Program-made: the position numbers and the translations under genes
DNA from: Raillietiella orientalis
Taxonomy: Eukaryota
NCBI GenBank assembly: GCA_036172245.1
Contig: JAYWIR010000071.1
Location: 62,001-126,000, forward strand
DNA length: 64,000 nucleotides
Direction: 5' to 3'
Part shown: positions 7,878 through 29,778 of the stretch, one piece after another
Numbering within the stretch: the stretch's first letter is position 1
How the letters are laid out: each line of letters opens with the position of its first letter
The notes under the pieces: generated by a model
Seen by the model: only the letters and a program-made list of their open reading frames with translations
Databases searched by the model: none
Told to the model about the DNA's origin: nothing

Positions 7878-7988
7878 TGCCCTCTCGGGGCACGCAAAAA
7901 TTGCCGCGGCAGTGGTTTTACGCACTGCCTTGGCGGGGTATTGGGTAAAGTTTTCAACTAGCAATAATCGCGGCTCAGTCGCCTTCCT
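7878..7988 (-). ncRNA. U4: 5'-truncated U4 snRNA copy (nt 30-140) between E5 and E6
   Basis: 111 nt matching U4 nt 30-140. Confidence 0.93.
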
Positions 7989-8079
7989 TTCCCCAGTCCG
8001 GCGTGCGGTGGGGTATATTTATTTTAAACAATAACAAAAGACACTTATTATAAATGCTGCGGCCCAATCGGGTGCATCT

Positions 8080-11000
8080 TCACACCGTCCCGGCCGCACA
8101 TTGCACTATCCTGAGGCAATGTTGGAAGGTCCACGAGGGGACTCTCCCGCATGCTCGAATGTTTATTTCCTTTTTCAAGAGTCCGCAAAGGACGTCCAGG
8201 GCACTGCACGATTCACCTAGGCCTAGCTTAAACCTTCGTATGAGAATACTTCTCATGAAGGAGGCCACGATCACTCTCACGGTGGGATTGTAGCGGGGTA
8301 CTCCGTCTTCGCCCTCGAAGAGTCCTCTCAGGATCTCGAGCGTCGACATTTCCTCCATCCTCACCGCCCTCCTCACGGTCTTCCAGTTTCTCGCGAGGGT
8401 GCGGCAGGTGTATATGTGAAGGTCATCCTCGATTGACCCACATCCTGGGCACCCGTCGTCGTCGGGATTTCCGGTCCAGTGCTGAAGCCTCGTGCCACAC
8501 AGTATGCCTCCGTGATAAAACATCAGCAGGCAGTCCTGTATGTCCGGTGGTAACGAGGATCTCCATAGGACCATCCCGATTGCCTGTGCGTGGACGCCGG
8601 GATTGCCTAACCTACACTTGATCTTCATCATCGCCTCGGACGGTGTTGTTTCCTGGAGACTAAGGAGGTTATTGTTCTGGAGGTTTACCCTGGACCATTG
8701 GGAGCCCTGATCTTTCCAGAGCTCCCGGGTTTTATGGGTTATCTTCCCCTCCAGCTGACGTTTGTATGCGAGGACTCGGCGGGCGTGTATAACTACGCTA
8801 TTCGCCAGTCGCTCCGTGTCTTCCATGGTGATCTTTCGGGTCTTCCTGATCCACTTTTCAGTGTCCCACGGTACGTTCATGAACAGGGGAATCACCTTGG
8901 TGACTTCCCTGTTCCAGACTTCTTTACTTCGGGGTACCACTCGCAGTTTCAAAGTCCATGTTAAACGCTGGATTCGAGGCCACGTAGGGTCCACTTGGTC
9001 CCAGCCGCCCGCGGTGAGCGTCACGGCTGACGTGAGGCCGTCGGTTCCGTGCACCATTCTTGCGAAGGCACGGTGGAACGCGAACGGCCACTCGTCCCAT
9101 GCGCTGACCATTCGGACCAGGTTTTTCAGGTCCTGGAGTTTCACGGCACTTGCGACTGTGCGCATGCCGGTTCCTCCTTCCGTCCGCGGGCGGCACAGGT
9201 ACCGCAATTTCGTCTTGGGTCGTTTCCCGCTCCAGACAAGGTTCCTCTGGATGGCGGCCAGGTGTTTTGCCGTCCTCGGGGGAAACGATGAAAAGGACGC
9301 TGCGAAGAGAAACTTCGGCGCCATCACCCCGTTCCACAGGTTCGCCTTGTCCTTCTGGGAGAAGGATCTTCCGGTGTATTGGCTGGCTTCTTCGCGCAGC
9401 TTGGCCAAGATGTTGGACCATTGCTGCGCCTCCAGGGCAGGTGTTTCTTCGCCGATGCGTATCCCCAGGTACTTCACGTTGTCCTCGATCTGGTAGCCGT
9501 GGGCGTGCAGGACGGTGACGTCCGGGATTCCCACGGCGAGCAGATGGGACTTGTTGGGGTTCACTCGGAGTCCGAGGCCGCACTCCATGGCCTGCACGAC
9601 GTCCAGGAATGACTCCTGGTCCTGCTCGTCGGTCATGACGAATACCAGGTCGTCTGCGTAGGCCAGGTGTGTGATCTTGGGTTCTTGTTCGCCGAGGTCG
9701 ATACCCTTCAGTTGGCTCTCGTGTTCAACGAAGGCACTGACTGCCTCCATGTACAGTACGAAGAGCATGGGACTCAGGGCATCTCCCTGTCGGACTCCTT
9801 TTTCCATCTTGATGCTAGTCGACGATAGCCCGTTGACGACTATCGAGAAGTTGGCCTCTTCCAAGGTATGAGCCACGTGCTGCACGAATCTCCCCTGGAA
9901 GCCAAGTTTTCCGAGGATTTTCAGCAGCATGGCGTGGTCCACCGAGTCGAAGGCCTTCTCGATGTCGGTGAAGCCCAGTACCAGGTCCATTCCTACGGTA
10001 CGGCTGTACCCTCGGAGGGCCTGGATACACTTCAGGTTATCCCACATGCGTCTGCCTGGCACGGCACACGTCTGTGTGGGGGAAACCGCGGACTTCATGC
10101 ATTGGCTCAGCCTGTTTGCCCAGATCTTCGCCATCCATTTCGCGTCCGAATTCAGTACGGATATGGGTCTCCACTGCGTGACGCTGTGGAGGTCCCCGCC
10201 GCTCTTGGGGAGCAGCCTCATCCTGCTTCGGTGAAAGGAGGCGGGCAGTCGATGTTCCTGGTCGATGCATTCCAGCAGCTGACGGAACAGGCGCAGGTAG
10301 TGCGTTACGTGCCTCTGATAGTGCGTTACGGGGACGCTATCCGGGCCCGCAGCCACATCCTTGCGCAATCCGTCGAAAGCCGCTTTGATCTCCTCGACTG
10401 TAAATTGCTTTTCCAGGTCGTTGATTTCTTTGGAGGTCAGGCGTTTCTTCACGCAACGGAGGATCCGCTCCTGACCTCCCGGGTCCAAAGTCGCTATCTT
10501 GAATAATTCGGTGTAGTGGTGTTGGAATGCTTCCAGCACTTGCTCCGAGGTCCTGTAGTCCTTATCCTGGTAACGGACATGGAATATGTCCGTTGCCAGG
10601 TTTCGCTTCTCCAGCCGTCCGATGTCCTTTTTCACGCTTTTCTCGAGGAAGCGACTCTGGTACTGTTCCCAGTACACGGAGTGGGAGGGATGGAATTCAC
10701 ACATCTCCCTGTACGCTTCCTCGCGGGGATCCCGATCGCCGTACTGCATGTTGGAGAAGAGGTGGATGGTGTGTTTCAGGGCATCCCAGTCGTCCACGCG
10801 CAGGATGTTGGTCGTGGCAAGGATGGTTTCCACGACGCGCTGGTACGGCGGAAAACGTTCGTACCATTCGGGCATGCAGATGAGTGCGGCCCGAGGTGGT
10901 GCGTTTTCCTTCCTGGGATTCCTGGATGTCATTCTCCATTTCAGCAGGGGATGGTCCGAGATTCCGGTACTCAGTTCCCGGATCCCCTGCATGCGGTTCG

Positions 11001-11592
11001 CCAGAGTTCCCGAGTGCAACACGTAGTCGATGTGCGTCGCGTTCGCTCCCGTGCACAGGAGGGACAGTTCCTCCATCATGCAGCGGTACACGTCGTACGC
11101 ACCCGACTCGTTGTGCCGACAGCCGTCCAGGCGGACGTTAAAGTCGCCTGCAATCACGACGACGTCTTTCGGGGTGATCTTGCTCTGGACTAGGCCTGCA
11201 AGACTTGTCGCGAAGGCTTTCTTGTTGAATAGTGGCCCGTACACGTTCACTACAAGTAGGTGAACGCTTCCGGACCACGCCATTCTCAATCCCACGACGC
11301 GGCCATTCCATCCGATGAAAACTTCCAGGACGGTAGGCGCAAGGGTCTGCTTGAGGAGAATGGCCACACCTTTGCGGTTAGTCGAGCCCTGGTTGACATG
11401 GACGTCGACTTGCAGTTCTCTTTCCAGTTCTTGGCATGCTTCGGGCGTCATGAAGTGGGTTTCCTGCAGGCAGCAGATTGCCTCCTGTCGTAAGAGCCAC
11501 TTCATATGTTTCCTGCTCATCGGGTTCGTGCATCCGTTGATGTTCCAGGATGCGAACCCGATTTTCCATGCTGACGATAGGTACTGGATCAT
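8080..11592 (-). CDS. E5 ORF2, APE-RT (1170 aa)
   Basis: SWNING, LQETH, GDFN, IDY, SDH; WRPISVLNSD, GVRQGD, YADD, YLG; CPGC...H...C. Confidence 0.95.
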   Translation of the reverse strand: MIQYLSSAWKIGFASWNINGCTNPMSRKHMKWLLRQEAICCLQETHFMTPEACQELERELQVDVHVNQGSTNRKGVAILLKQTLAPTVLEVFIGWNGRVVGLRMAWSGSVHLLVVNVYGPLFNKKAFATSLAGLVQSKITPKDVVVIAGDFNVRLDGCRHNESGAYDVYRCMMEELSLLCTGANATHIDYVLHSGTLANRMQGIRELSTGISDHPLLKWRMTSRNPRKENAPPRAALICMPEWYERFPPYQRVVETILATTNILRVDDWDALKHTIHLFSNMQYGDRDPREEAYREMCEFHPSHSVYWEQYQSRFLEKSVKKDIGRLEKRNLATDIFHVRYQDKDYRTSEQVLEAFQHHYTELFKIATLDPGGQERILRCVKKRLTSKEINDLEKQFTVEEIKAAFDGLRKDVAAGPDSVPVTHYQRHVTHYLRLFRQLLECIDQEHRLPASFHRSRMRLLPKSGGDLHSVTQWRPISVLNSDAKWMAKIWANRLSQCMKSAVSPTQTCAVPGRRMWDNLKCIQALRGYSRTVGMDLVLGFTDIEKAFDSVDHAMLLKILGKLGFQGRFVQHVAHTLEEANFSIVVNGLSSTSIKMEKGVRQGDALSPMLFVLYMEAVSAFVEHESQLKGIDLGEQEPKITHLAYADDLVFVMTDEQDQESFLDVVQAMECGLGLRVNPNKSHLLAVGIPDVTVLHAHGYQIEDNVKYLGIRIGEETPALEAQQWSNILAKLREEASQYTGRSFSQKDKANLWNGVMAPKFLFAASFSSFPPRTAKHLAAIQRNLVWSGKRPKTKLRYLCRPRTEGGTGMRTVASAVKLQDLKNLVRMVSAWDEWPFAFHRAFARMVHGTDGLTSAVTLTAGGWDQVDPTWPRIQRLTWTLKLRVVPRSKEVWNREVTKVIPLFMNVPWDTEKWIRKTRKITMEDTERLANSVVIHARRVLAYKRQLEGKITHKTRELWKDQGSQWSRVNLQNNNLLSLQETTPSEAMMKIKCRLGNPGVHAQAIGMVLWRSSLPPDIQDCLLMFYHGGILCGTRLQHWTGNPDDDGCPGCGSIEDDLHIYTCRTLARNWKTVRRAVRMEEMSTLEILRGLFEGEDGVPRYNPTVRVIVASFMRSILIRRFKLGLGESCSALDVLCGLLKKEINIRACGRVPSWTFQHCLRIVQCAAGTV

Positions 11593-11612
11593 CGACGGGC
11601 TGTGGAGACGGT

Positions 11613-13115
11613 CTATTTGACCTTTCTCTTCTTTTTGGACAGTGGTGCCCTTGTCTGGGCGCGCCTGTCCTTCTTTCTATTTCCCCTGTTTCCCTGGTCT
11701 CTAGCGCCCTCCTCCTCGGAGTTGTCCTCTTCCGAGTTGCAGGAGAGCACTACTTGGATTTCCGCTTCCTCCCCCTGTTTAGGTTTCTCCTCCTTAAGTA
11801 CGAGGGGGGTTAGGCTGACGTACACTTGCTCCTCAAGGTGCATCGCTGCCTGAGGCGAGATTGTCTCTTGCCTCAGGCTTTCCAGCAGCTCTTTCGACTG
11901 CTGGAATGCCAGCCCTTTTTCTTGGTCGTTCGCGACCTCGCTAATTGTTGAGCGAAGGTCGTCAATTTTCGCCTGCAGGTCGCTCGTGGTTGCCTCGTGC
12001 CCGATTTCTCCCTTGGGAGTCTCGTCGGTGGAGGCTACGGGCTCTTTTCGCTCCCTGCTTCTCCCGCTGTCGATTGGTGCCGCCTGGGTTTTCCTTTCTG
12101 GAGTAGGGGGAAGAGAAGGCTTGGAAGTCTCCACCGGAGTTTCGGGAGAGCTCTCCTTTTGCTTTCTCCTCTCTTCCTGGAAGGCTAGCCAATCTTGGTA
12201 TTTGTGGCATTCCTTCCTCTCGTGCCCCCCGGCCTTGCAAAAGTAGCAACGCTTGGGGCGTTCGCATGCGGCATCAGCGTGCTTCGCCTTGCCGCAGTGC
12301 TTGCACCTTCTCTCCGGGCAAACCACCGTCCTGTGACCGAAAACCATGCAGGTGCGGCAGAAGTCCGGTTGTTCACGGTACGCCACGCGTACTAGGTGCG
12401 AGTTCTCGTCGATTCGGACCAGGGTAGGGATCTGCGCCCCTTTCCGCATCCGGATTTTCACGATGGCTTCTCCACCGTACCTTTTCTGGTGGTAGCCAAT
12501 TTCGTTCATGCGGACGACTTCGCCGTATTGATCGAAGTATTCCATCACCGCGTCTACTTCCGTCATCGGATGCACTCCGGACAAGTACACCGACGTAGCC
12601 GCGAGTTCGGAAACTCCGCGGATGATGTGGCCGTTTATTTCGAGGCCGTTCTCCACCAAATCGTCGATGAGCTCGGGTTTATCCGTATACACGGCGAAAC
12701 CCCCCACGTAAAAAACGATGGCTTTCACATCTTCGAAGTCGATCCTCTTACGGTGAATCGCGAGGTATATCTCGCGAACGGAGTTGTTGGTCAGTCGACC
12801 CATGAGAAAAGTGACCGCAGTGACCTCCGGGCCGAATTTTCGCATGGGGCCTGAACCCCTCTTCAACTCTCTCCCGACGATAACGCCGTTTCCCACTGCT
12901 GATGCAACTCCCGAACTGGACGCAGCCACGCTCACGTACGACGGCGCTGCGGGTACCTGACCTGCTGTCGCAGCTGCGGACGTCGTTGCGATCGCCGTGG
13001 AGGGTCCAGCTTGCACTTGCATCCTGGATTTCTTTTCCCCTCTCTTCCCTGGAATTCCTGTATTCCTCGGTTTCCCACGTGCGTTGGTGGATAGTGAAGG
13101 GTCCACCTTCCTCAC
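11613..13115 (-). CDS. E5 ORF1 (RRM-like + 3 CCHC knuckles); first ATG at 13022
   Basis: CRTCMVFGHRTVVC, CKHCGKAKHADAAC, CYFCKAGGHERKEC; basic C-terminus SKKKRKVK. Confidence 0.87.
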   Translation of the reverse strand: MRKVDPSLSTNARGKPRNTGIPGKRGEKKSRMQVQAGPSTAIATTSAAATAGQVPAAPSYVSVAASSSGVASAVGNGVIVGRELKRGSGPMRKFGPEVTAVTFLMGRLTNNSVREIYLAIHRKRIDFEDVKAIVFYVGGFAVYTDKPELIDDLVENGLEINGHIIRGVSELAATSVYLSGVHPMTEVDAVMEYFDQYGEVVRMNEIGYHQKRYGGEAIVKIRMRKGAQIPTLVRIDENSHLVRVAYREQPDFCRTCMVFGHRTVVCPERRCKHCGKAKHADAACERPKRCYFCKAGGHERKECHKYQDWLAFQEERRKQKESSPETPVETSKPSLPPTPERKTQAAPIDSGRSRERKEPVASTDETPKGEIGHEATTSDLQAKIDDLRSTISEVANDQEKGLAFQQSKELLESLRQETISPQAAMHLEEQVYVSLTPLVLKEEKPKQGEEAEIQVVLSCNSEEDNSEEEGARDQGNRGNRKKDRRAQTRAPLSKKKRKVK

Positions 13116-13147
13116 TTTGCACCGAACACTGTTTTTTCACGATCACT

Positions 13148-13268
13148 TGCCCTCTCGGGGCACGCAAAAATTGCCGCGGCAGTGGTTTTACGCACTGCCT
13201 TGGCGGGGTATTGGGTAAAGTTTTCAACTAGCAATAATCGCGGCTCAGTCGCCTTCCTCGCCTACGAT
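13148..13268 (-). ncRNA. U4: 5'-truncated U4 snRNA copy (nt 20-140) between E4 and E5
   Basis: 121 nt matching U4 nt 20-140. Confidence 0.93.
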
Positions 13269-16200
13269 TTTCCCCAAGTCCCACAGGGGGTGGGGTAAAT
13301 TTATTTTCTATAAAAATACAATTTTACATTCACACTCACATTCACTCTATGTTTACTCTTTGTCTTTCACTTTGAAGTCCTGGGGGGGTACACTAGAGTA
13401 CTGCTTTTTACTTCAGGGTGGATTTCCAGCTGGATGGTCCCGGGCGTCGTCCTCAATCCTCTTCAGGATGAATCTGTACGTCCAGGCTTGGATGCGTCCA
13501 CAATTCCTGATGCCGATCTCCTTCTTGATGAGTCCTTGCAGGATCTCCATCGGGGTTGCGGCTCTGCTGGCTCTTCTCATCTTCCACCACCGCACAAGTA
13601 TGGCGGTGATGAAGAGGGCAATGGTCGTCCTCACCATGGGATTGTAACAGGGAACATTACCATTTCCCTGAAACATCCCGGCGAGGATCTCCATCACGGA
13701 ACTGGTCGTCATTCCAATGATCCTTTTCAGGATCAGCCAGTCGTGAAGGAGTGTGGGACACGTCAAGATGTGAAGTCTTGTATCGTTGTCACCACACGCC
13801 GTGCAGTCTCCGTCTTCCCGTCTTCTGGTGAAGTGCTTGAGTCTGGACCCGCTCAGGATACCTCCATGGTAAAACATCAGGAGGTTGTCCTGGGTGTCCG
13901 GCGGAAGGTCACTCCTCCAGAGCGTTGTGCCGATCGCCAACAGGTTGATGCGATCGCTCCCGTAGCGGTCGGCGGCTTCTTGGAGGGCACTGGTGTCCTT
14001 TTCTTCGTCTCTGATCATCTTCCGGAGGTTCATTTTGGTCACCCTCGACCACGCGAAGTCGTTGTGGTTAATCCACACCTCGCGGGTCTGGTGGGTGAAC
14101 CTCCCTAACATCATCTCTATGTACCGGAGTACACGAGAATGATGTAGGTATCCTCCTCGGCGCCATTCCTGGATCCGTTGCAGGGTAACTCTGGGCCGCT
14201 GGTAGATCCAGCTTCTCGTGTCCGGAGGGACCGGAAGCATCCAGGGGATCACCAGGATGGACTCGTCCTGCCAGAGTTCCCTGCTTCTTGGCACGATCTT
14301 CATCTTGTGCTTTCGCACAAGCCGCTGTTTTCTTCTCCAGGTAGGGTCGATGGTGATCCATTCCCCTGCTCGGCCTAGCAGCGCAGTCATCAGGCCTTTC
14401 GAGTTGTTCAGCAACAACGCGTAGGCCCTGTGCGCCGCATACGGCCAGTCATCCCAGTGAGTGGCTATGTCCAGGATGTGTCGCGTATCCATGATTTCCA
14501 TGGAATGTGCAGGCGACTTCATCCCGGAACCGCCTTCTTCCCTGGGACGACACAGAGGTTTGAGACGGACTCTTGGGCGATAATGGCCCCACAAAGTTTT
14601 CCTTTGCAGCTTTTCTACTTCCCTCGTGGTATCTTTATTCATTCTTGCGAAGGCCGCCCCGAAGAGTATCTTTGGTAGAAGTACTCCGTTCCACAGGTTG
14701 GCTCTTCGCTTCATGTTAAAGTCCACTCGAGTGTACTTCGCTGCTTCGTTGGCCGTTTTCCCCAGGATTTCCGTCCACAGCAGTTTCGACGCAGAGTCGT
14801 CGCCGATGTAGACTCCCAGGTACTTGGCCGTGTCCACCGTACGGAATCCACTCCCCGTTAGAGTGGAGAGGTTCAGGATTCCGACGGGCAAAAGCTGGCT
14901 CTTTTGGGCATTGATTTTCAAGCCCAGTCCCTGTTCCATGAGGTCGACCACATCCAGGAACGCTCGTTGATTCCTCTCTCCCTTGATGAAGAAGAGGAGA
15001 TCATCTGCGTATGCCAGATGGGTCAGGTGCTGACCATCAATGGAAATCCCTGATAGACGACCGCTTCTCTCGATGTAAGAAGACAGCGCCTCCATGTATA
15101 TGACGAACAGCATTGGACTTAGCGAGTCGCCCTGCCGGACTCCTCGTTCCATCCTAATTGCTGCCGTCTCTTGGCCGTTGATTTTGATACGGCAGTACTG
15201 GTTTTGGAGTACCGCCCTCACGAAGTTGCTGAAGTGTTCCGGAAGCCCAAGCTTCTCCAGAACCTTCAGCAGCATCCCGTGGTCGATGGAGTCGAAGGCC
15301 TTCTCCATGTCAGTGAACACCAGCACCAGGTTCTCGCCGACGTATCGGCTGAGTCCGACGGTGGCCTGGGCGCACTTGACATTGTCAGACATGTGTCGTC
15401 CTGGGACTGCACACGTCTGGACCGGAGAGATCAGCCTCGACATGACCCTGCCTAAGCGGTTGGACCAGATCTTCGCCAACCACTTGGCATCTGAGTTTAG
15501 GATCGAGATCGGCCTCCATTGAGCGATCTGCGTGAGATCGCCTCCTTTTGGCAGCAATCTCATCCTACTCTCGTAGAAGGATTCCGGAAGTCGTCCTTCT
15601 TCTCGGATGCAGAGTGTCAACTGGTGGAACAAACGCAGGTAGGCGTGCAGGTACCGCTGATAGTGCGAGATGGGTACACTATCAGGGCCTGCTGCCACAT
15701 CCTTGCGAAGCTGCCCAAACGCAGTCTTCACTTCCTCTTCGGAGAACTCCTCCTCCAGTCTACTTCTTTGGAGGTCGTCCGTCCTCTTCTCGAGGTAACC
15801 CAGGAAGGCTTGCTGACTCGAGCGGCAGAGATCTTGTCGTCGGAAGTGTCTCGCGTAATGCCTGTGAAAGGCTTCCGCGATATCCTCCGACGTGTGCCGC
15901 TCTTGGCCGTCGTACTGGATGCAGAAGATATCTGTCGCCAGATTCCTCTTTTCCAGCACGCCGACCTCCCCTTTCGTGTTCTGGAAGACGTACCGACTCT
16001 CGTACTGATCGAAGTACTTCGAGAGGGAGCGATCTTGAATGTCCAGCTCCCGGTACGCTTCCTGCCTCATACGCTTGCAAAAGTACTGCATGTTGCAGAA
16101 CAGATCGATCCTGTGCTTCAACCTGTCCCAGTCGGCGACTCTGCGTATGGTGGTGTCCCGCAGAATAGCCTCGATGACCTCCTGGTGACAGGGAAGCGTT

Positions 16201-19130: not shown

Positions 19131-22100
19131 TTACCTTGGATCCGCTTGGGTTCGGAGACTTCCTTCTATCCTTCTCAGGATGTGTCGGTAGTTCCAAACT
19201 TGCACTCGTCCGCAGTTTCGGATGCCAATCTCCTTCTGGATCAACCCTTGCAGGATCTCCATCGGAGATATGGCAGTCCTCGTGGTCCTCATCTTCCACC
19301 ACCGCACAAGGATGGCGGTGATGAAAAGGGCGATGGTCACTCTGACCATGGGATTGTAGCGTGGAACCGTTCCAGTTCCCTGGAACATTCCTGCCATTAC
19401 GTGCATGGTCGAGGCGTTGTTCAGCCCGATGACCCTTTTCAGGGTTGTCCACTCGGATTGCAATCTGGGGCAGGTCAACACGTGTCTACCTGAATCCAAT
19501 CCACCACATGCTTTGCAGGTTTCTTCTTCTCGTCGTCCCGTGAAGAGCGCTATTCTCGTGCCGCACAGGATCCCCCCATGATAAAACATGAGGAGATTGT
19601 CCTGTGTATCCGGCCAGTCGTCCCAGTTGGAAGACATCTCCAGGATGTGTCGCACGTCCATGTTGTTCAGGACGTGTGCAGGCGACTTCATCCCGGTTCC
19701 TCCCTCCTCCCTCGGACGACAAAGTGGCTTCAGGCGTACTCTCGGACGGTATCCTCCCCACAGGGTCTTCCTCTGTAGCTTTTCCAGTTCTCGCTTGGTG
19801 TCTTTCGACATGTTGCTGAAGGCCGCTCCGAAAAGTATCTTCGGAAGGAAAACTCCATTCCAAAGGTTGGCCCTCTGCTTCATGTTGAAGTCCGAGCGCG
19901 TGTACTTCGCTCCTTCTTCAGATACTTTCCCCAGGATTTCCTTCCACAACAGTTGGGATGCGGATGCATCACCAATGTGGATACCTAGGTACTTGATCGT
20001 GTCCACCGTACGGAAACCTTCACTCACGAGTGTTGTGAGGTCCAGGATGCCGACGGGCAAGAGTTTGCTTTTCTGGGCATTGATTTTAAGCCCCAATCCT
20101 TTCTCCATGAGCTCAACCACATGCAAGAAGCCTCGCTGATCTCTCTCCCCTTTGAGAAAGAAGAGAAGGTCGTCCGCGTAGGCGAGATGGGTGAGTCTCT
20201 GTTGGTCAACTTTGATTCCTCGGAGATACCCGGTTCTGTCGATGAACGACGAGAGGGCCTCCATGTAGATGACAAACAGCATCGGACTTAGCGCGTCGCC
20301 CTGACGGACTCCGCGTTCCATCCTGATGGCTGCTGTCGCTTCCCCATTGACGGTGATGCGGAATTCTTGGTCTTCTAGTACCATCCTGACGAAGTTGCTG
20401 AAGTATTCCGGGAGGCCCAGTCTTCCTAGAATCTTCAGCAGCATCCCATGGTCTACCGTGTCGAAGGCTTTCTCCATGTCAGTGAAGCTCAGCACCAAGT
20501 TCTCGCCTGTGTATCGGCTGAGTCCTATGGTGGCTTGAGCACACTTGACATTGTCCGACATGTGACGACCGGGCACCGCACATGTCTGGACCGGAGATAT
20601 AAGCCGCGGCATGACCTTGCCTAAGCGGTTGGCCCAAATCTTCGCCAACCACTTGGCATCGGAGTTCAGGATCGAGATTGGCCTCCATTGAGTGACCTGC
20701 GTGAGGTCACCGCCTTTCGGCAACAATCTCATCCGACTCTTGCTGATGGACTTTGGTATTCTTCCTTCTTCTTTGATGCATAGCGTCAGCTGGAGGAAGA
20801 GTCGCCGGTAGGCATGCAGATACCTCTGATAGTGGGAGATTGGAATACATTCAGGGCCTGCCGCCACATCCTTGCGAAGTTCCTCGAACGCAGCTTTCAC
20901 TTCTTCATTGGAGATATCTTCTTCCAGCATCTTCTTGCTCTTCTCGTCAATCCGGTTTTCCAGATGTTTCAGGAATCCTCGTTGATAGGTCTCGTCCGGT
21001 TGTTTCCTACGGAAGTGTTCTGCATAATGCCTGTGGAAGGCTTCTGCGATGTCTTCCGTCTTGCTCTTCGTCTGGCCTGCGTACTGGATGCTGAAGATAT
21101 CTGTTGCCAGATTCTTCTTCTCCAGTACGCCAACTTCACCCTTGATGCTGTTGAAGACGTAGCGGCTCTGATACTGTTGCCAGTACTTGGAGAGCGAGCG
21201 ATCTTGGATGTTGAGCTCGCGGTACGCCTCCTTCCTCAGTCTCTTGTCTCCAAACTTTATGTTGCAGAACAAATGGATGCGGTGCTTGAGGCTGTCCCAA
21301 TCGGCGACCCTGCTGATGGTTGTAGTTTGCAGGATCACCTCCATCAGATCTTGATGATGGGGATGGGTCTCGAACCATTGGGGCATGGTGAGAATTGCCT
21401 CCCTCGTTGCCTTGCTTCGTCGAGGGTTTTCCGTCCGCAAGGTGAACCTCATCAACGGATGATCGGACACAGAGTGGGGAGTGTCTCGAAAACCGAGGAC
21501 TCGGTTCCCAATGTCGGCACTGTAGAGGACGTGGTCGATCGGCTTGTGGCTCGCAGTCAGCCACTGAAGTCCGAACTCGTCGGAAAGCCGCCGATACGCC
21601 TCCCTTCCTCTGACGTCCCGGGAATAGATGACTTCATCCAGGATGTTGAAGTCCCCAACGATGATGACGATGTCCTTCGCCTGCACTTTCTGGCGGAGGG
21701 CTTCATGAAGCACCTCCGCGCACTGGTGCTTTAGGTGGTGCGGCCCGTAAACGTTCACCAGGAAGAGGTGAACGTTCGCGGACCAGGACAATCGTGAGAC
21801 GAGAATTCTTCCAGGGACGGGACAGAAGACTTCCAGGATGGTGGCGGCAAGGTGGTTCTTGATTGCCGTTGCCACCCCCATGGTGTACCTCTGTCCCACG
21901 CTGGTGAACAGCTGGACGTTCATTCGTCTCTCCAATTCCAGGCTGATCTGCTGCCCCATCTCGTGGGTTTCCTGCAGGCAAACAATGTCGAAATGCCTGA
22001 TCTTATGGGCTATTCTTCGTCTTCGCACCTGATCTTGCATTCCATTAACGTTCCAGGAGGCGATGGTCAGTCTCCCGGCTGTCGACAAGGATGAGACCAT
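19131..22100 (-). CDS. E3 ORF2, APE-RT with in-frame deletion of ~181 codons between RT and the zinc finger
   Basis: SWNVNG, GDFN, SDH, GVRQGD, YADD. WDDWP is joined directly to DTQDNLLMFYHGG, which are 181 codons apart in E4. Confidence 0.9.
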   Translation of the reverse strand: MVSSLSTAGRLTIASWNVNGMQDQVRRRRIAHKIRHFDIVCLQETHEMGQQISLELERRMNVQLFTSVGQRYTMGVATAIKNHLAATILEVFCPVPGRILVSRLSWSANVHLFLVNVYGPHHLKHQCAEVLHEALRQKVQAKDIVIIVGDFNILDEVIYSRDVRGREAYRRLSDEFGLQWLTASHKPIDHVLYSADIGNRVLGFRDTPHSVSDHPLMRFTLRTENPRRSKATREAILTMPQWFETHPHHQDLMEVILQTTTISRVADWDSLKHRIHLFCNIKFGDKRLRKEAYRELNIQDRSLSKYWQQYQSRYVFNSIKGEVGVLEKKNLATDIFSIQYAGQTKSKTEDIAEAFHRHYAEHFRRKQPDETYQRGFLKHLENRIDEKSKKMLEEDISNEEVKAAFEELRKDVAAGPECIPISHYQRYLHAYRRLFLQLTLCIKEEGRIPKSISKSRMRLLPKGGDLTQVTQWRPISILNSDAKWLAKIWANRLGKVMPRLISPVQTCAVPGRHMSDNVKCAQATIGLSRYTGENLVLSFTDMEKAFDTVDHGMLLKILGRLGLPEYFSNFVRMVLEDQEFRITVNGEATAAIRMERGVRQGDALSPMLFVIYMEALSSFIDRTGYLRGIKVDQQRLTHLAYADDLLFFLKGERDQRGFLHVVELMEKGLGLKINAQKSKLLPVGILDLTTLVSEGFRTVDTIKYLGIHIGDASASQLLWKEILGKVSEEGAKYTRSDFNMKQRANLWNGVFLPKILFGAAFSNMSKDTKRELEKLQRKTLWGGYRPRVRLKPLCRPREEGGTGMKSPAHVLNNMDVRHILEMSSNWDDWPDTQDNLLMFYHGGILCGTRIALFTGRREEETCKACGGLDSGRHVLTCPRLQSEWTTLKRVIGLNNASTMHVMAGMFQGTGTVPRYNPMVRVTIALFITAILVRWWKMRTTRTAISPMEILQGLIQKEIGIRNCGRVQVWNYRHILRRIEGSLRTQADPR

Positions 22101-22112
22101 AAAAAGGTGGTT

Positions 22113-23741
22113 TTAGTTTTTGGCCTTCCGCAACTTCTTCTGGCGGGGAGACCTTTCTCTCCTTACCGCCGTCGAAGCTGGCTTCTCACTCCCGCCATCG
22201 CTCTCTGTGCCGGTGTGGTCTGTTGTATCGTTATCTTGTTCGTTGGAGCGCTCTAGCTTGGCGACTGTTTTGCGCGGAAGGGTCTCCAGGGAGACCTTGG
22301 CGCAGTAGTTCGCTTTTACGACGCAGAGCTTGTTCTCCAGCCTGCCGCGTTCTTCCGGGTCTATGAGGGCGTTGATTCCCTCCTGTGTTTCACCAATGCG
22401 TGACAGGAGCTTCGCCTGCTGCACTTGGTTCACCTCCGTCTGTACTTCCTCCGCCAGCTTCACCACCTCCTCGGTGAGCTGCGCCGCCTCTTGCGAAGCC
22501 GGGGTAGCTTCGGTGATTTCCATCACCTCAGCTTCCGGCACTCCCTTCTGCGCAACAACCTCCTGCTGTTGCTCCACTACCTCGCCAACCGCCTGCTCGC
22601 CAACCTGCTGCATCTCCTCGCCTACCTGCTTCTCGGCCTGTGCAGAGGAGGAGGATTCTGGCTTCCTCACGAGCATCCTCCTCTTGCCGCCCTTCCCCAC
22701 CGTAGTAAAGCCGTCCTCAGAAACGGGAGCGGCCTCCTTCGCCTTCCTCTGCTTCAGTGCTCGTTGAGGCTTGATCACCCCTTCGAGCACTCGCGCCCTG
22801 ACCGGTGACTGGCCCCTCATCGTCCGGTAATTGGCAAACTCGGGGCAGCACCATTTTGCGTGCCCTGGGGCCTTGCAAAATGAGCATACCTCCGGCATGC
22901 TGCAATCACGGACTTGGTGGCCTTGCTTCCCACAGCGGAAGCATTTGGACCTTGGGCAGACGCGCTGCCTGTGTCCGAAGGATTTGCAACCGTTGCAGAA
23001 AACGGGTTGCGCCCTGTACCGCACAGAGACTCCCTGGTCATCCCCCTCGAAATGTATGGTCCCAGGAATCTGGGCATCTTCCAACAGCTTTATCTTCACC
23101 GTTGCTTCACCCGAAAAGATCTTCCCCGAGATGTTGTGGAAATTGCTGTCCAGTACCTCGCCGTACTGCGACAGGCGTTTCCACACCGCCTTCTGTGTGA
23201 TAAACGGCCCTAGCCCGCTCAGAAAAACGGTGGTGTACGGCATTTCGCCGACTCCACACACCATTTTGCCCTGGATGTTGATTCCTTTTTCGATGAACTC
23301 CTGGCGGAGTTCATCGCACTCTGTGTAGATCGTGAACCCGAATGGCCCGGGCACGATCGCCTGCAACTTATCAAAGTCTACCTGTTGCTTGTACAGCGCG
23401 AGGTAGACTTCCCGAATGTTATGCATTCGGATTAAACCGGTCTTGAACGTGACCGTCTTGACGTTTGGGCCCAACTTGAATATGGGCTCGTCAACGTCCC
23501 TGATCGGCCCGGACTCGGGCTTTCCGAATTTTCTCTGCGGCTGGGTTGTTGCCGTCCCAGCCGCCACCGCCGCATAGGAAAACGTTGCCGCCGCCGGCGG
23601 CCGCCCCACGGTCGCAGCCGCCGCGCAAGATGGCGTCGCGTCATTAGCAACGGTTTGGCCTACGAGCCCTGCCGTTGCTAGGGGCGCTTCCGCCGTCGCC
23701 GCCGCCTTCGCAGCCACCACCGTGGCCTGCCTTGCCACCAC
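22113..23741 (-). CDS. E3 ORF1 (RRM-like + 3 CCHC knuckles); in-frame TAA at 23769-23771 separates it from the upstream ATG
   Basis: CNGCKSFGHRQRVC, CFRCGKQGHQVRDC, CSFCKAPGHAKWCC. Confidence 0.82.
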   Translation of the reverse strand: MVARQATVVAAKAAATAEAPLATAGLVGQTVANDATPSCAAAATVGRPPAAATFSYAAVAAGTATTQPQRKFGKPESGPIRDVDEPIFKLGPNVKTVTFKTGLIRMHNIREVYLALYKQQVDFDKLQAIVPGPFGFTIYTECDELRQEFIEKGINIQGKMVCGVGEMPYTTVFLSGLGPFITQKAVWKRLSQYGEVLDSNFHNISGKIFSGEATVKIKLLEDAQIPGTIHFEGDDQGVSVRYRAQPVFCNGCKSFGHRQRVCPRSKCFRCGKQGHQVRDCSMPEVCSFCKAPGHAKWCCPEFANYRTMRGQSPVRARVLEGVIKPQRALKQRKAKEAAPVSEDGFTTVGKGGKRRMLVRKPESSSSAQAEKQVGEEMQQVGEQAVGEVVEQQQEVVAQKGVPEAEVMEITEATPASQEAAQLTEEVVKLAEEVQTEVNQVQQAKLLSRIGETQEGINALIDPEERGRLENKLCVVKANYCAKVSLETLPRKTVAKLERSNEQDNDTTDHTGTESDGGSEKPASTAVRRERSPRQKKLRKAKN

Positions 23742-23969
23742 CGCCGCTGTGGCGCCAGAAACACACGATTACCCTACCTCCATGGGCTGAGGCTTCTCCG
23801 TGGTTCCCATCCACCGCTGCTCTTGCATCTTGACGGGGTGCTGCTGCACCGCCGCCGGGGAGGGTCGCGACTCCTCCACCTTGGACTCCCTATGGCTGCT
23901 GCTGCTGCTGCTGCACTCGCTGTGGGACGTCCTGAGTAGCGCACTCACTGTTTTTTTTCACTATTCACT

Positions 23970-24089
23970 TGCACTCTCGATGCACGCAAAAATTTCCGCG
24001 GCAGTGGTTTTACGCACTGCCTTGGCGGGGTATCGGGTAAAGTTTTCAACTAGCAATAATCGCGGCTCAGTCGCCTTCCTCGCCTCGAT
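23970..24089 (-). ncRNA. U4: 5'-truncated U4 snRNA copy (nt 20-140, T24 deleted) between E2 and E3
   Basis: 120 nt; 1-nt deletion at U4 nt 24; variant terminal hairpin TGCAT-CGAGA-GTGCA. Confidence 0.93.
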
Positions 24090-24243
24090 TTTCCCCAAGT
24101 CCCACAAGGGGTGGGGTAAATTTATTTTCTATAAAAATACAATTTTGCATTCACACTCGCATTCACACTCACATTCACTCTATGTTTCCTCTTTGTTTTT
24201 CACTTTGAAGTCCTGGGGGGTACACTAGAGTACTGCTTTTACC

Positions 24244-27200
24244 TCAGGGTGGATTTCCAGCTGGATGGTCCCGGGCGTCGTCCTCGATCCTCTTCAGGAT
24301 GAATCTGTACGTCCATGCTTGGATGCGTCCACAATTCCTGATGCCGATCTCCTTCTTGATGAGTCCTTGCAGGATCTCCATCGGGGTTGCGGCTCTGCTG
24401 GCTCTTCTCATCTTCCACCACCGCACAAGTATGGCGGTGATGAAGAGGGCAATGGTCGTCCTCACCATGGGATTGTAACAGGGAACATTACCATTTCCCT
24501 GAAACATCCCGGCGAGGATCTCCATCACGGAACTGGTCGTCATTCCAATGATCCTTTTCAGGATCAGCCAGTCGTGAAGGAGTGTGGGACACGTCAAGAT
24601 GTGAAGTCTTGTATCGTTGTCACCACACGCCGTGCAGTCTCCGTCTTCCCGTCTTCTGGTGAAGTGCTTGAGTCTGGACCCGCTCAGGATTCCTCCATGG
24701 TAAAACATCAGGAGGTTGTCCTGGGTGTCCGGCGGGAGGTCACTCCTCCAGAGCGTTGTGCCGATCGCCAACAGGTTGAAGCGATCGCTCCCGTAGCGGT
24801 CGGCGGCTTCTTGGAGGGCACTGGTGTCCTTTTCCTCTTCTCTGATCATCTTCCGGAGGTTCATTTTGGTCACCCTCGACCACGCGAAGTCGTTGTCGTT
24901 AATCCACACCTCGCGGGTCTGGTGGGTGAACCTCCCTAACATCATCTCTATGTACCGGAGTACACGAGAATGATGTAGGTATCCTCCTCGGCGCCATTCC
25001 TTGATCCGTTGCAGGGTAACTCTGGGCCGCTGGTAGATCCAGCTTCTCGTGTCCGGAGGGACCGGAAGCATCCAAGGGATCACCAGGATGGACTCGTCCT
25101 GCCAGAGTTCCCTGCTTCTTGGTACGATCTTCATCTTGTGCTTTCGCACAAGCCGCTGTTTTCTTCTCCAGGTAGGGTCGATAGTGATCCATTCCCCTGC
25201 TCGGCCTAGCAGCGCAGTCATCAGGCCTTTCGAGTTGTTGAGCAACAACGCGTAAGCCCTGTGCGCCGCATACGGCCAGTCATCCCAGTGAGTGGCTATG
25301 TCCAGGATGTGTCGCGTATCCATGATTTCCATGGAATGTGCAGGCGACTTCATCCGGAACCGCCTTCTTCCCTGGGACGACACACAGGTTTGAGACGGAC
25401 TCTTGGGCGATAATGGCCTTACAAAGTTTTCCTCTGCAGCTTTTCTACTTCTCTTGTGGTTTCTTTATTCATTCGTGCGAAGGCCGCCCCGAAGAGTATC
25501 TTTGGTAGAAGTACTCCGTTCCACAGGTTGGCTCTTCGCTTCATGTTAAAGTCCACTCGAGTGTACTTCGCTGCTTCCTTGGCCGTTTTCCCCAGGATTT
25601 CCGTCCACAGGAGTTTCGACGCAGAGTCGTCGCCGATGTAGACTCCCAGGTACTTGGCCGTGTCCACCGTACGGAATCCACTCCCCGTTAGAGTGGAGAG
25701 GTTCAGGATTCCGACGGGCAAAAGCTGGCTCTTTTGGGCATTGATTTTCAAGCCCAGTCCCCGTTCCATGAGGTCGACCACATCCAGGAACGCTCGTTGA
25801 TTCCTCTCTCCCTTGATGAAGAAGAGGAGATCATCTGCGTATGCCAGATGGGTCAGGTGCTGACCATCAATGGAAATCCCTGATAGACGACCGCTTCTCT
25901 CGATGTAAGAAGACAGCGCCTCCATGTATATGACGAACAGCATTGGACCTAGCGAGTCGCCCTGCCGGACTCCTCGTTCCATCCTAATTGCTGCCGTCTC
26001 TTGGTCGTTGATCTTGATACGGCAGTACTGGTTTTAAAGTACCGCCCTCACGAAGTTGCTGAAGTGTTCCGGAAGCCCTAGCTCCTCCAGAACCTTCAGC
26101 AGCATCCCGTGGTCGATGGAGTCGAAGGCTTTCTTTATGTCGGTGAACACCAGCACCAGGTTCTCGCCGACGTATCGGCTGAGACCGACGGTGGCCTGGG
26201 CACACTTGACATTGTCAGACATGTGTCGTCCTGGGACTGCACACGTCTGGACCGGAGAGATCAGCCTCGACATGACCCTGCCTAAGCGGTTGGACCAGAT
26301 CTTCGCCAACCACTTGGCATCTGAGTTTAGGATTTAGATAGGCCTCCATTGAGCGATCTGCGTGAGATCGCCTCCTTTTGGCAGCAATCTCATCCTGCTC
26401 TCGTAGAAGGATTCCGGAAGTCGTCCTTCTTCTCGGATGCAGCGTGTCAACTGGTGGAACAAACGCAGGTAGGCGTGCAGGTACCGCTGATAGTGCGAGA
26501 TGGGTACACTATCAGGGCCTGCTGCCACATCCTTGCAAAGCTGCCCAAACGCAGTCTTCACTTCTTCTTCGGAGAACTCCTCCTCCAGTCTACTTCTTTG
26601 GAGGTCGTCCGTCCTCTTCTCGAGGTAACCCAGGAAGGCTTGCTGACTCGAGCGGCAGAGATCTTGTCGTCGGAAGTGTCTCGCGTAATGCCTGTGAAAG
26701 GCTTCCGCGATATCCTCCGACGTGTGTCGCTCTTGGCCGTCGCACTGGATGCAGAAGATATCTGTCGCCAGATTCCTCTTTTCGAGCACGCCGACCTCCC
26801 CTTTCATGTTCTGGAAGACGTACCGACACTCGTACTGATCGAAGTACTTCGAGAGGGAGCGATCTTGGATGTTCAGCTCCCGGTACGCTTTCCGCCTCAT
26901 ACGCTTACAAAAATACTGCATATTGCAGAACAGATTGATCCTGTGCTTCAACCTGTCCCAGTCGGCGACTCTGCGGATGGTGGTGTCCCGCAGAATCGCC
27001 TCGATGACCTCCTGGTGACAGGGAAGCGTTTCGAACCAGGCGGGCATGCAGATGAGCGCCGCCCTGGTGGCCTTTACCCTACGGGGATTTTCAGTGCGGA
27101 GTGTAAACCGTACCAATGGGTGATCGGACAACAGATGTGGAATGTCACGAAAACCCTGGATGCGTTTGTCTATCTCCGCGCTGTGGAGGACGTGATCGAT

Positions 27201-27761
27201 CGGCTTGTGGCTAGCTGTTCGCCACAAAAGTCCGAACTCGTCGGACAGCAGCCGATACGCCGCTCTTCCCCTTGCATCCTGAGAATACTTGATTTCATCA
27301 AGGATGTTGAAATCCCCAGCGACGATGACTATGTCCTTCGGTGCCACTCGTTTGCGGAGTTCTTCTTGCAGTTTCTCCGCGCACCGATGCTTGATCTTGT
27401 GCGGTCCGTAGACGTTCACCAGGAAGAGGTGAACGTTACTGGACCAGGACAGTCGCACGCCGATTACTCTGCCAGGTACCGGACAGAAAGTTTCCAGAAT
27501 GGTGTGGGCGAGCTCGTTCTTGATGAGGATCGCCACCCCCATGGTCTTCTTCTGTCCCTCGCTGGCGAACAGTTGTCCGTCGAATCGGCGTTCCATCTCC
27601 AGGGCGTTCTGCTGCCCGAGACGGTGGATTTCTTGTAGGCACACCACATCCTGTCTTGCGATGGTCCGCATGACACTTTTTCTCTTTCCCTGGTCCGTCA
27701 GTCCATTCACATTCCAGGAGGCGATGTTAATCCTCCTGGCACTGGACAGCAACCAGGCCAT
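24244..27761 (-). pseudogene. E2 ORF2 pseudogene (APE-RT)
   Basis: TAA stops at 26334-26336, 26034-26036 and 25419-25421, plus a 1-nt deletion near 25354, relative to E1. Confidence 0.9.
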
Positions 27762-27777
27762 GAAATGGGGGGGAGTT

Positions 27778-29649
27778 CTACTTCACCTTTCTTGCCTTCC
27801 TTAGCTTCTTCTGCTGGGGAGACTTGTTCAGTTTCTCTGCTGAAGAAGTGGGTTTTTCACTGCCGGCATCGCTCTCGGTGCCGGTGTGATCAGTGGACTC
27901 CTGTTCGTCCACAGAGCGTTCCGCCTTGGCGACCACCTTGCGCGGAAGGGTCTCCAGTGAGACCGTCGCAAAGAATGCCGCCTTCAGGTCGCCCAGCTGG
28001 TCCTCCAGCTTTTCCCGCTCTGGTTCTACAACCATGCGGTTTACGTCGTCTTGGACCTCGCAGATGCGGTTCAGGATTTTTGCCTGTTCCGCCTCCGGTT
28101 GGCCCTGGCGAACCTCCTCTGCCAGTTTAACCACCTCCTCGGAAAGTTGCAGGGCCTCCTGCGTCTCCGGGACTGGTTCTGGCGTCTTCTCCTCCTTCTC
28201 CGTTTCCTCCGCCACCTCCATACTCTCGCCTACCGCTGCTTCAACAACCGGGGTTTGAGGAATCTGTTGCTCCCTTGCGAGCATCTTCCTTTTCCCCTTC
28301 TTCCCCACCTCCACGAAGCCGTCTGCCGAAACCGGAGCGGCCTCTCTTGCTTTCCTCTGCTTTGCTAGCTGAGGTTTGATTACCTCAGCTAGCACCCTTT
28401 CCCTCACCGGGGACTCTCCTCTAATCGTCCGGTAGTTTGCATACTCCGGACAGCTCCATTTCGCATGCCCTGGTTGCTTGCAAAAGGAGCATAGCTCGTG
28501 CATGCTACAGTTCCGGACCTGGTGGCCCTGTTTCCCGCACCTGAAGCAGCGAGATCTAGGGCAGGCACCCATCCGGTGGCCAAAGTCCTTGCAACCGAGA
28601 CAGAAGATCGGTTGCTGACGGTACCTGACGTTCACCTCTTGCGAGGCTTCGTCAATGTGCACCAAACCGGGGATTTGGGCACCTTCTTTAAGCTTAATTT
28701 TGGCGATTACTTCGCCCGAGAAGATGTCTCCGGAGATGTTCTGGAAGTTTACATCCAGAACCTTTCCGTATTTCTCCAGGAAATCCCACACCGTTTCTTG
28801 CTCGGTGAAGATTCCCACTCCTCTGAGGTGGACGGTGGTGTAAGGCATTTCTCCTACTCCTTGTACCATTTTTCCCTGAATATTGATGCCCTTTTCGATT
28901 AGGGCCTCCCGCAATTCCTCGCAGTCCGTGTACAGTGTAAAACCTGACGTGCTGGGAATGATCGCTTGGAGAAGATCAAAGTCGACGTTGGTTGTAAAGA
29001 GAGCACAGTACACCTCTCTTACGTTGTTAAACCGGATCAATCCGGTCTTAAACATAATTGGTTTCGACGCTGGACTTAGGCGAACCATTGGTTCTTTGCA
29101 TCGCGTGATGCGTCCAGTCGTCGGCTTCCTGAATGTTCGGTTTGGCTGGGCAGAGGCCTGCCCCGCCGTAACCGACGCATACGAAAACGGCTTTGTAGCC
29201 GAACCCGAACAAGATGGCGTCGCCATGTACGCCGCGTGGACGCCCGGGGCTCCCGCCTGGGACGCCGCCGCCGCCGCTGCGGGCGCAACCCTCGTCGTCG
29301 CCGTCGCCGATGTCGCCGTAGGCGGGACCTTCGGCATCGCCGCCGCCGGCACGACCTTCCCCGCCGCGGGCGCGATCCTCGGCGTCGCCGCCGCCGGCGC
29401 AGCAAAGCCTGCCGCGGGCGCGACCCTCGGCGTCGCCGCTGCCTCCTCGCCACTGCCGCATATTACCTCCATGTGTTCTTCCATGAGGGTCGACGGCTGC
29501 TCCACTTCCAGACGGTGCCTCCTTGCGGCTGCCGTTGCTGCCGCACTTCCTGTTTGGAGGACTTCCACCTCGGGTCCTTCGGCGCTGCTGCTGCTGCTGC
29601 TGTCGGGTATTTCCGTCGGTGGCACAGTTACTTCCACACTATCTTTCAC
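27778..29649 (-). CDS. E2 ORF1 (RRM-like + 3 CCHC knuckles)
   Basis: CLGCKDFGHRMGAC, CFRCGKQGHQVRNC, CSFCKQPGHAKWSC; open frame. Confidence 0.87.
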   Translation of the reverse strand: MKDSVEVTVPPTEIPDSSSSSSAEGPEVEVLQTGSAAATAAARRHRLEVEQPSTLMEEHMEVICGSGEEAAATPRVAPAAGFAAPAAATPRIAPAAGKVVPAAAMPKVPPTATSATATTRVAPAAAAAASQAGAPGVHAAYMATPSCSGSATKPFSYASVTAGQASAQPNRTFRKPTTGRITRCKEPMVRLSPASKPIMFKTGLIRFNNVREVYCALFTTNVDFDLLQAIIPSTSGFTLYTDCEELREALIEKGINIQGKMVQGVGEMPYTTVHLRGVGIFTEQETVWDFLEKYGKVLDVNFQNISGDIFSGEVIAKIKLKEGAQIPGLVHIDEASQEVNVRYRQQPIFCLGCKDFGHRMGACPRSRCFRCGKQGHQVRNCSMHELCSFCKQPGHAKWSCPEYANYRTIRGESPVRERVLAEVIKPQLAKQRKAREAAPVSADGFVEVGKKGKRKMLAREQQIPQTPVVEAAVGESMEVAEETEKEEKTPEPVPETQEALQLSEEVVKLAEEVRQGQPEAEQAKILNRICEVQDDVNRMVVEPEREKLEDQLGDLKAAFFATVSLETLPRKVVAKAERSVDEQESTDHTGTESDAGSEKPTSSAEKLNKSPQQKKLRKARKVK

Positions 29650-29657
29650 TAGGCACT

Positions 29658-29778
29658 TGCCCTCTCGGGGAACGCAAAAATTGCCGCGGCAGTGGCTTTA
29701 CGCACTGCCTTGGCGGGGTATTGGGTAAAGTTTTCAACTACCAATAATCGCGGCTCAGTCGCCTTCCTCGCCTACGAT
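29658..29778 (-). ncRNA. U4: 5'-truncated U4 snRNA copy (nt 20-140) between elements E1 and E2
   Basis: 121 nt nearly identical to U4 nt 20-140 with a few substitutions; lacks the U4/U6 stem II segment. Confidence 0.93.

Follow-up and report, generated by a model that had tools for sequence, protein, structure and literature searches.

Organization of the U4 array

The window analyzed here is a 64,000-nucleotide (nt) stretch of the Raillietiella orientalis genome (assembly GCA_036172245.1, contig JAYWIR010000071.1, positions 62,001 to 126,000 of the forward strand), which carries a gene for the spliceosomal U4 small nuclear RNA (snRNA) and a row of retrotransposons that are joined to pieces of this gene. 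The whole U4 gene lies on the minus strand at 35533-35396 and scores 99.5 bits over model positions 1-138 (Rfam RF00015). This intact copy is the head of an array in which six retrotransposons of the type that lacks long terminal repeats (LTRs), the non-LTR type, with an apurinic/apyrimidinic endonuclease (APE) and a reverse transcriptase (RT) follow downstream, all on the minus strand. U4 positions are numbered throughout with nt 1 at window position 35533. Read along the minus strand, the order is intact U4, E1 (lineage A), E2 (A), E3 (C), E4 (A), E5 (B), and E6, and the elements measure 5.0-5.6 kb between U4 copies. BLAST with the full copy as query finds five truncated U4 copies on the same strand as the head. 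Four of the five lie above the Rfam gathering score, and the copy after E3 is not listed. The array is composed of the following features:

35390..35533, minus strand: intact U4 gene, nt 1-138 by Rfam plus CAAGTG (Rfam RF00015)
29779..35389, minus strand: E1, lineage A, both open reading frames (ORFs) open, ORF1 35226-33457 and ORF2 33440-29922 (Pfam, ORF map)
29779..29815, minus strand: conserved 3′ end, with E1 as the example: AATAAA, terminal stem-loop, GGGGAAA(A); same layout in E2-E5
29654..29778, minus strand: U4 nt 20-144 after E1, 118/125 identical to the head copy (BLAST, junction reading)
24090..29653, minus strand: E2, lineage A, a decayed copy with one frameshift whose ORF2 is split into three pieces (ORF map, alignment)
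23966..24089, minus strand: U4 nt 20-144 after E2, one base missing at nt 23/24 (BLAST, junction reading)
18968..23965, minus strand: E3, lineage C, ORF2 22100-19131 open with an in-frame 183-amino-acid deletion relative to A and B (Pfam, ORF map)
18847..18967, minus strand: U4 nt 24-144 after E3 (BLAST; below the Rfam gathering listing)
13269..18846, minus strand: E4, lineage A, ORF1 and ORF2 in a single open frame 18677-13413 (ORF map, Pfam)
13144..13268, minus strand: U4 nt 20-144 after E4, zero private changes (Rfam, BLAST)
7989..13143, minus strand: E5, lineage B, both ORFs open, ORF1 13022-11613 and ORF2 11592-8080 (Pfam, ORF map)
7874..7988, minus strand: U4 nt 30-144 after E5, 115/115 identical to the copy upstream of E5 (Rfam, BLAST)
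5420..7873, minus strand: E6, mosaic A-related element, first ~2450 nt only, without a 3′ junction (alignment)

Upstream of the intact gene (35600-36060, minus strand) extends a low-complexity, A/C-rich, and strongly strand-asymmetric sequence of more than 450 nt (A 58%, C 20%, G 10%, T 12%), and no snRNA promoter element is recognizable in it. The 3′ stem-loop of the head copy (35396-35415) reads CCCTCACAGGG, and the five truncated copies carry CCCCGAGAGGG or a derivative of it; the head differs from all five at nt 124, 131, 132, and 134. A former tandem array of U4 genes was ruled out as the origin of the truncated copies, as neither U4 nt 1-19 nor promoter sequence occurs between the units.

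Nature and kinship of the elements

The elements display the typical properties of APE-type non-LTR retrotransposons of the L1 superfamily: APE and RT are combined in ORF2, ORF1 contains CCHC zinc knuckles, LTRs are absent, and the 3′ end is A-rich and preceded by AATAAA. Pfam identifies the Exo_endo_phos and RVT_1 domains in the ORF2 of E1, E3, E4, and E5, and a zf-CCHC match in ORF1, where three knuckles are found in E1, E2, E3, and E5 and two in E4. The catalytic motifs of the APE are retained in A, B, and C. The closest sequence match in the Protein Data Bank (PDB) is human L1 ORF2p (E = 7e-56), followed for the endonuclease by L1-EN (3e-6); the R1 and TRAS endonucleases gave no PDB match at E <= 0.001. 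Within the window, the elements occupy one defined site of one repeated target, at five of five 3′ ends and six of six 5′ ends.

The division into three families that was made in an earlier sequence-only reading of the locus is real. E1, E2, and E4 are 93-95% alike overall, whereas E3 reaches ~74% and E5 ~66% to them. In the ORF2 protein, the RT is 81% identical between A and C and 57% between A and B, the APE 70% and 39%, respectively, and the region behind the RT 38% between A and B. The RT identity of 57-81% among A, B, and C compares with at most 36% to any of 1.84 billion representative proteins. No library protein closer than 29% (in one search) or 36% (among the 1.84 billion representatives) was found, the nearest lying at 25-36%, and the matches in the protein atlas are generic RVT_1/Exo_endo_phos clusters only. 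Since the three lineages are far closer to one another than to any library protein, they are judged, from protein identity, to be one clade that stands separately within the L1 superfamily.

Several peculiarities of single copies were observed. In E4, ORF1 and ORF2 are fused into a frame of 1754 amino acids (13413-18677), with a 1-nt indel close to the end of ORF1, and the histidine of the first CCHC knuckle, out of three, is lost. The 183-amino-acid deletion in ORF2 of E3 lies in the C-terminal part and leaves the frame open to the normal stop. Tandem repeats of 24, 48, or 72 nt encode an Ala/Pro-rich stretch near the N terminus of ORF1 (E6 7480-7663, E4 18481-18632, E2 29314-29443).

Element 5′ ends and the flanking U4 repeats

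All six element 5′ ends directly adjoin the 3′ end of U4 (…AGGG CAAGTG, then element), a feature that the sequence-only reading had missed. Part of the CAAGTG may belong to the element, because the second unit of the duplicated 5′ untranslated region (UTR) of E1 starts with the same letters. The first 2-6 nt past CAAGTG vary among copies of one lineage.

Every element that possesses a 3′ end (E1-E5) consequently lies between direct repeats of 115-125 bp that represent the back part of U4. The two flanking repeats are identical at 115/115 positions for E5, 118/121 for E4, 118/125 for E1, 115/124 for E2, and 112/121 for E3. The net product of an insertion is promoter, whole U4, element, and truncated U4, in which the upstream gene copy is unbroken.

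The element starts (35389, 29653, 23965, 18846, 13143, and 7873 on the minus strand) have the motif GTGAAA(R)A..AGTG in common, about 8-20 nt past the U4 3′ end, despite 5′ UTRs that otherwise cannot be aligned between the lineages. The motif looks similar to an snRNA 3′-box and might keep the upstream U4 processable. In the 5′ UTR of E1 (35020-35389), the first ~180 nt are present as a tandem duplicate whose second unit starts with CAAGTGCCT, compared with a single unit in E2 and E4; this arrangement resembles the promoter monomers of some L1 elements.

Element 3′ ends and the position of the join

The five element 3′ ends in the window all join U4 within nt 20-31. The sequence-only reading had placed the joins at nt 20 for the three A elements (29778, 24089, and 13268), at nt 24 for C (18967), and at nt 30 for B (7988), and BLAST, junction reading, and alignment agree with these positions; being read off the junctions, they are no matter of chance similarity. 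Its structural labels likewise agree with the Rfam alignment, in which nt 1-19 are unpaired, the 5′ stem-loop begins at nt 20, and nt 30 is part of a 5-nt internal loop, known as the K-turn of U4. It also noted correctly that B and C are represented by one copy each in the window.

The elements terminate in GGGGAAAA in A and C and in GGGGAAA in B. Because A20 and A30 could belong to this GGGGAAA(A) tail, the joins may instead be 21, 24, and 31. AATAAA is located 29-32 nt from the 3′ end in five of five elements, and all five have a terminal stem-loop, which A, B, and C thus share and in which B shows one compensatory pair. The last 45 nt of A and C are almost identical, and their joins are 3-4 nt apart. 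As nearly identical termini go together with different joins, microhomology of the tail fails to explain the difference. A mimicry of U4 nt 1-20 by the element 3′ tail was also considered and rejected, as the best local matches span 5-6 nt and are reached by 30-58% of shuffled sequences.

Sequencing reads extend the observation beyond the window. Run X1 contains 0.56 of the searched words, runs X2 and X3 contain next to none, and no RNA run is listed among the matching ones. At least one read contig from X1 (455 nt, summed depth 25.9) extends, free of gaps, from the end of an A-related ORF2 through a join at nt 20 to the end of the U4 piece. Compared with E4, a 108-nt stretch of its 3′ UTR is replaced, and 18/172 positions are mismatched in a region where E1, E2, and E4 are ~95% alike. 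Since it differs this much from the A copies in the window, the contig comes from an A-related copy outside of it. The summed read depths, which are not copy numbers, are 50-90 for the 3′ part of A, 10-18 for the 5′ part of A, ~13 for C, and 0.4-3 for B; the lower depth of the A 5′ part may reflect ORF1 divergence beyond the 85% cut-off. A metagenome scan for the conserved 3′ UTR motif returned 57 loci, none of which (0/57) continues into the element stem-loop and U4, so that these loci are regarded as chance matches.

Mosaic copies and independent insertion

The A copies E1, E2, and E4 are 96-100% alike from element position ~1400-1600 to the 3′ end. The centers of their ORF1 (E1 33457-35226, E2 27778-29484, E4 16932-18677) are only 72-86% alike in gap-free alignment, with a synonymous divergence (dS) of 0.85-1.6 and a ratio of nonsynonymous to synonymous divergence (dN/dS) of 0.07-0.11. 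Three ORF1 alleles are thus found, all on elements that join at nt 20. The contrast between the two parts is read as the result of recombination that brought ancient ORF1 alleles together with one ORF2 backbone; by alignment, the breakpoints lie close to element positions 1400 and 1600. E6 is a further mosaic, made of three parts. Its 5′ UTR resembles that of E2 (97-100%), its ORF1 center that of E1 (94-97%), and the rest, with an ORF1 end and APE of a third kind, shows ~80% identity to every A copy. Near 5420, within the APE region, the element is cut off, and unrelated AT-rich DNA of ~37% GC follows. Exchange between lineages is frequent, either at the RNA level or within the array.

The ORF2 of E1 and E4 differ at 41/3519 positions, 24 of which are synonymous (dN/dS 0.205). 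Among the 30 changes private to E4, 19 are synonymous, compared with 8.2 expected under a spectrum-matched neutral model (P = 4e-5). For E2, 19 of 44 private changes are synonymous versus 12.6 expected (P = 0.03), and its ORF2 carries one frameshift and, as the ORF map suggests, stop codons. E1 has 10 private changes, five of them synonymous, which is not significant (P = 0.16). Purifying selection on the private changes of E4 implies that its 3′ module comes from a separately evolving active source, and by this substitution pattern E4 is independent of E1 and E2. At least two of the three A-type joins in the window are independent, to which the one read contig is added.

These observations bear on a tandem duplication or unequal crossing-over of one unit of element plus U4 as the origin of the array. 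The regular head-to-tail units with their common 5′ join and the evident exchange between members would fit such a process. It conflicts with an identity of only 66-74% between the lineages, a dS of up to 1.6 in ORF1 between A copies, the purifying selection seen in the changes that set E4 apart from E1/E2, and the different start points of the U4 pieces. The explanation is considered very improbable, and tandem duplication of one unit as the sole process is excluded. The sequence-only reading, which argued for independent insertions instead, is largely borne out on this point by the interleaved lineages, the selection on E4 ORF2, and the diverged ORF1 segments of A.

Growth of the array

Provided that every insertion copies U4 from the insertion site through to its end, E4, with its site at nt 20, could not have entered the preceding copy, which starts at nt 24, so that E3 was inserted later. 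Under this model of own-site duplication, E3 must have gone into the copy upstream of E4 after E4 was in place, and E5 must have been inserted after E6. This order implies insertion into truncated copies as well as into the head copy.

The U4 copies carry, from head to tail, 4, 3, 5 (plus one deletion), 3, 0, and 0 private changes. An insertion into the head copy only, with the youngest element next to the head, was rejected, as the private U4 changes do not rise toward the tail; the intact elements E4 and E5 distal to the decayed E2 also speak against it. The notion that the U4 piece is an inherited tail of the element was rejected as well, given that an A element and a B element are followed by identical pieces.

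Proposed mechanism and alternatives

A mechanism has to account for the observed anatomy of the array, the U4 repeats, the lineages, and the independence of at least E4 from E1 and E2. The best explanation, which is given an even chance, is a U4-specific clade of the L1 superfamily that inserted repeatedly and separately and whose 3′ join is heritable together with the ORF2/3′ UTR module. The reaction would start with a nick in the antisense strand within the U4 segment coding for the 5′ stem-loop, at positions that are deduced from the joins. Reverse transcription would then begin exactly at the GGGGAAA(A) end of the element RNA, with the conserved 3′ stem-loop as a guide. Subsequently, the 5′ end of the element would be joined to the 3′ end of U4, which would place 115-125 bp of U4 on both sides and leave an intact gene upstream. 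This 5′ join could arise in two ways, either by a distant second nick that yields a long target-site duplication or by a template jump to U4 RNA with subsequent annealing. The array would have been built by repeated insertions of several lineages, both in the intact copy and in truncated copies in which the site was preserved. The 3′ join would be inherited with the ORF2/3′ UTR module, at about nt 20 in A, nt 24 in C, and nt 30 in B, most likely because each lineage has an ORF2 protein with a nicking or primer-positioning site of its own.

All three A-type ORF2/3′ UTR modules in the window join at nt 20 despite their three ORF1 alleles. The sequence-only reading had claimed family-specific joins. 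The A-type modules (3/3) and the A-related contig from outside the window agree with this claim, if weakly, and it is not established, as B and C are single. Diverged APE domains had been named as the cause. The APE identity (70% for A-C and 39% for A-B) is much like that of the other ORF2 regions outside the RT, and an unusual divergence of this domain is not borne out, as the A-B identity of 39% is close to that of the post-RT region (38%). Joins that are lineage-specific and partitioned by the endonuclease are best described as plausible.

Several findings weigh against this explanation. B and C contribute one junction each, and the C join corresponds to an A-type join shortened by 3 bp, at a spot where a small deletion does occur (nt 23/24 in the U4 copy after E2). 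Divergence in the APE does not exceed that in the post-RT region (A-B identity 39% versus 38%, with the RT at 57%). Mutual independence of E1 (P = 0.16) and E2 (mostly neutral changes) is not demonstrated. The A copies and E6 are mosaics, and recombination or gene conversion in the array could have spread one junction. Furthermore, the U4 repeats are not a simple clock, as the pieces after E1 and E2 exceed the number of changes predicted from the ORF2 rate (P = 0.006 and 0.001), and the 3′ stem-loop of the head departs from every truncated copy at four clustered positions. Gene conversion from other U4 genes, or a 3′ end copied from U4 RNA by template jump, is a possible source of both the excess changes and the stem-loop difference.

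Some of these findings also fit an alternative in which all lineages share one nick site. The joins of C and B would then be one-off events caused by primer resection or a later small deletion, and the A joins would partly be copies that arose by recombination in the array. Such a course is compatible with the single copies of B and C, with the 3-bp offset of C and the 1-bp deletion of E2 at the same spot, with the exchange between array members or their sources that is visible in the mosaics E1, E2, E4, and E6, and with the missing support for mutual independence of E1 and E2. It is at odds with E4, which has the same join although it is independent of E1 and E2, and with the further A-related lineage in the reads that also joins at nt 20. 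The perfect 115-bp repeat of E5 (115/115 from nt 30) speaks against later damage at the B join, and common resection should vary the A joins, which are identical in all three cases. On balance, a single shared nick site is regarded as unlikely.

The U4 repeats on both sides of the elements are also compatible with explanations that have the join passed on by inheritance and not fixed by the endonuclease. Element transcripts could read into the downstream U4 or start at the U4 promoter, and the cDNA could integrate at a nicked U4 by annealing or recombination through the shared homology. A daughter would keep the join of its parent, with most of the U4 sequence refreshed from the target. Homology-guided joining with co-transcribed target sequence is established for the rDNA-specific R2. 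Homology to U4 is available on both sides of every element, and an A and a B element that are only 66% alike are followed by U4 pieces that show no difference over 115 nt, which indicates that U4 is renewed while the joins stay lineage-typical. E1 seems to be young, with 10 private changes over the 3519 nt of its ORF2, and yet the head copy and the piece after E1 differ at 7/125 positions. PMC4494074 ascribes to template switching the snRNA sequence that was added at the 5′ ends of Tx1 elements and short interspersed nuclear elements. The position of AATAAA 29-32 nt from the 3′ end in all five elements suggests, on the other side, that transcripts end at the element without read-through, and the variation of the first 2-6 nt past CAAGTG within a lineage fits 5′ joins that are made anew. 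An inherited join is seen as a minority explanation of low probability.

A join that is set by ORF2 and inherited with its module is thus retained as the preferred explanation. Its most far-reaching form holds that an old clade of long interspersed nuclear elements (LINEs) uses U4 only, spares its host by a duplication of the final 115-125 bp of U4 through which each insertion restores a functional U4 gene upstream, divides a 10-bp stretch of the 5′ stem-loop coding region among its lineages through diverged ORF2 endonucleases, and exchanges ORF1 freely. Taken together, this set of statements is tentative and rather doubtful as a whole.

Outside of the array, the window contains one other L1-like piece, a fragment at 54103-54522 (minus strand) whose protein is 27-30% identical to the C-terminal region of ORF2 in the array elements. 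It is of a different, remote lineage and does not lie beside U4. A search for host genes found no Pfam family above the cut-off in 12 frames at 36-63 kb.

Significance

Target-specific retrotransposons are natural models for safe, site-directed gene insertion. A U4-specific APE-type clade, if true, adds a new snRNA target to this group, and one in which the target gene is apparently left intact through a very long duplication. The combination of an L1-like clade specific to U4, duplications of 115-125 bp, an intact gene copy, and mosaic ORF1/ORF2 modules appears to be undescribed. Related lineages with near-identical RNA ends and different joins offer a comparison for finding the ORF2 residues that set the position of cleavage or priming. 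The ORF1 modules of saturated synonymous divergence on almost identical ORF2 backbones additionally bear on recombination between LINE lineages.

Comparison with known systems

According to the passages on the subject in Kojima and Jurka 2015 (PMC4640811), targeting of snRNA genes was known only for Keno and Utopia (both U2) and for two DNA transposons, Dada-U1 and Dada-U6. The 2022 Dada survey contains no "Dada-U4". A search for U4-targeting retrotransposons found none in the titles and abstracts of the papers listed from the full-text literature, a scope that leaves Repbase and subscription journals outside.

Keno is an APE-type, U2-specific element of the Tx1 clade and resembles the array elements in being an APE-type LINE with a fixed insertion point in the gene for a spliceosomal snRNA. 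Target-specific families are described as abundant in the Tx1/L1 group (PMC4640811, PMC4494074). The array elements differ from Keno in their target, which is U4 by Rfam and not U2, and in their long target duplication, which the passages on Keno in these two papers do not mention.

Utopia provides the closest parallel for the mixed array. As far as the relevant parts of PMC4640811 report, several Utopia lineages coexist in an snRNA gene of low copy number, on occasion within one array, as in the mixed arrays of Phytophthora U2 genes, and truncated target copies without a 5′ end are found beside element 3′ UTRs. The authors leave open a partial duplication of U2 upon insertion in the same passages (PMC4640811). 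Unlike the array elements with their APE and their U4 target, Utopia employs a PD-(D/E)xK-type endonuclease and targets U2, and its lineages have one common insertion site, whereas the joins in the U4 array differ by lineage.

Long target duplications are recorded for R9 of bdelloid rotifers (126 bp) and Dualen-4b of Chlamydomonas (median 900 bp), in the excerpt of PMC9977147 that cites Gladyshev and Arkhipova 2009. Both are site-specific or active LINEs that, by this account, leave an unusually long target repeat on both sides, as the array elements do. R9 is described there with a 28S rDNA target and a restriction-like endonuclease, unlike the array elements. A further difference from R9 and Dualen-4b, as portrayed in that excerpt, is that the 115-125 bp repeat in the array extends as far as the end of a small RNA gene, by which a complete gene copy is restored.

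The U6/L1 and other snRNA/L1 chimeras share with the array a full snRNA sequence that immediately adjoins the 5′ side of an equally oriented L1-type element, an arrangement explained by template switch or RNA ligation (bioRxiv 10.1101/2025.02.02.635956). They are portrayed there as rare one-off events at random sites with 5′-truncated L1 copies, whereas the array shows the arrangement at six of six elements, with full-length elements and with U4 on the 3′ side too. Set beside these systems, the array looks like a known kind of element with a new target, U4, and unusually long duplications.

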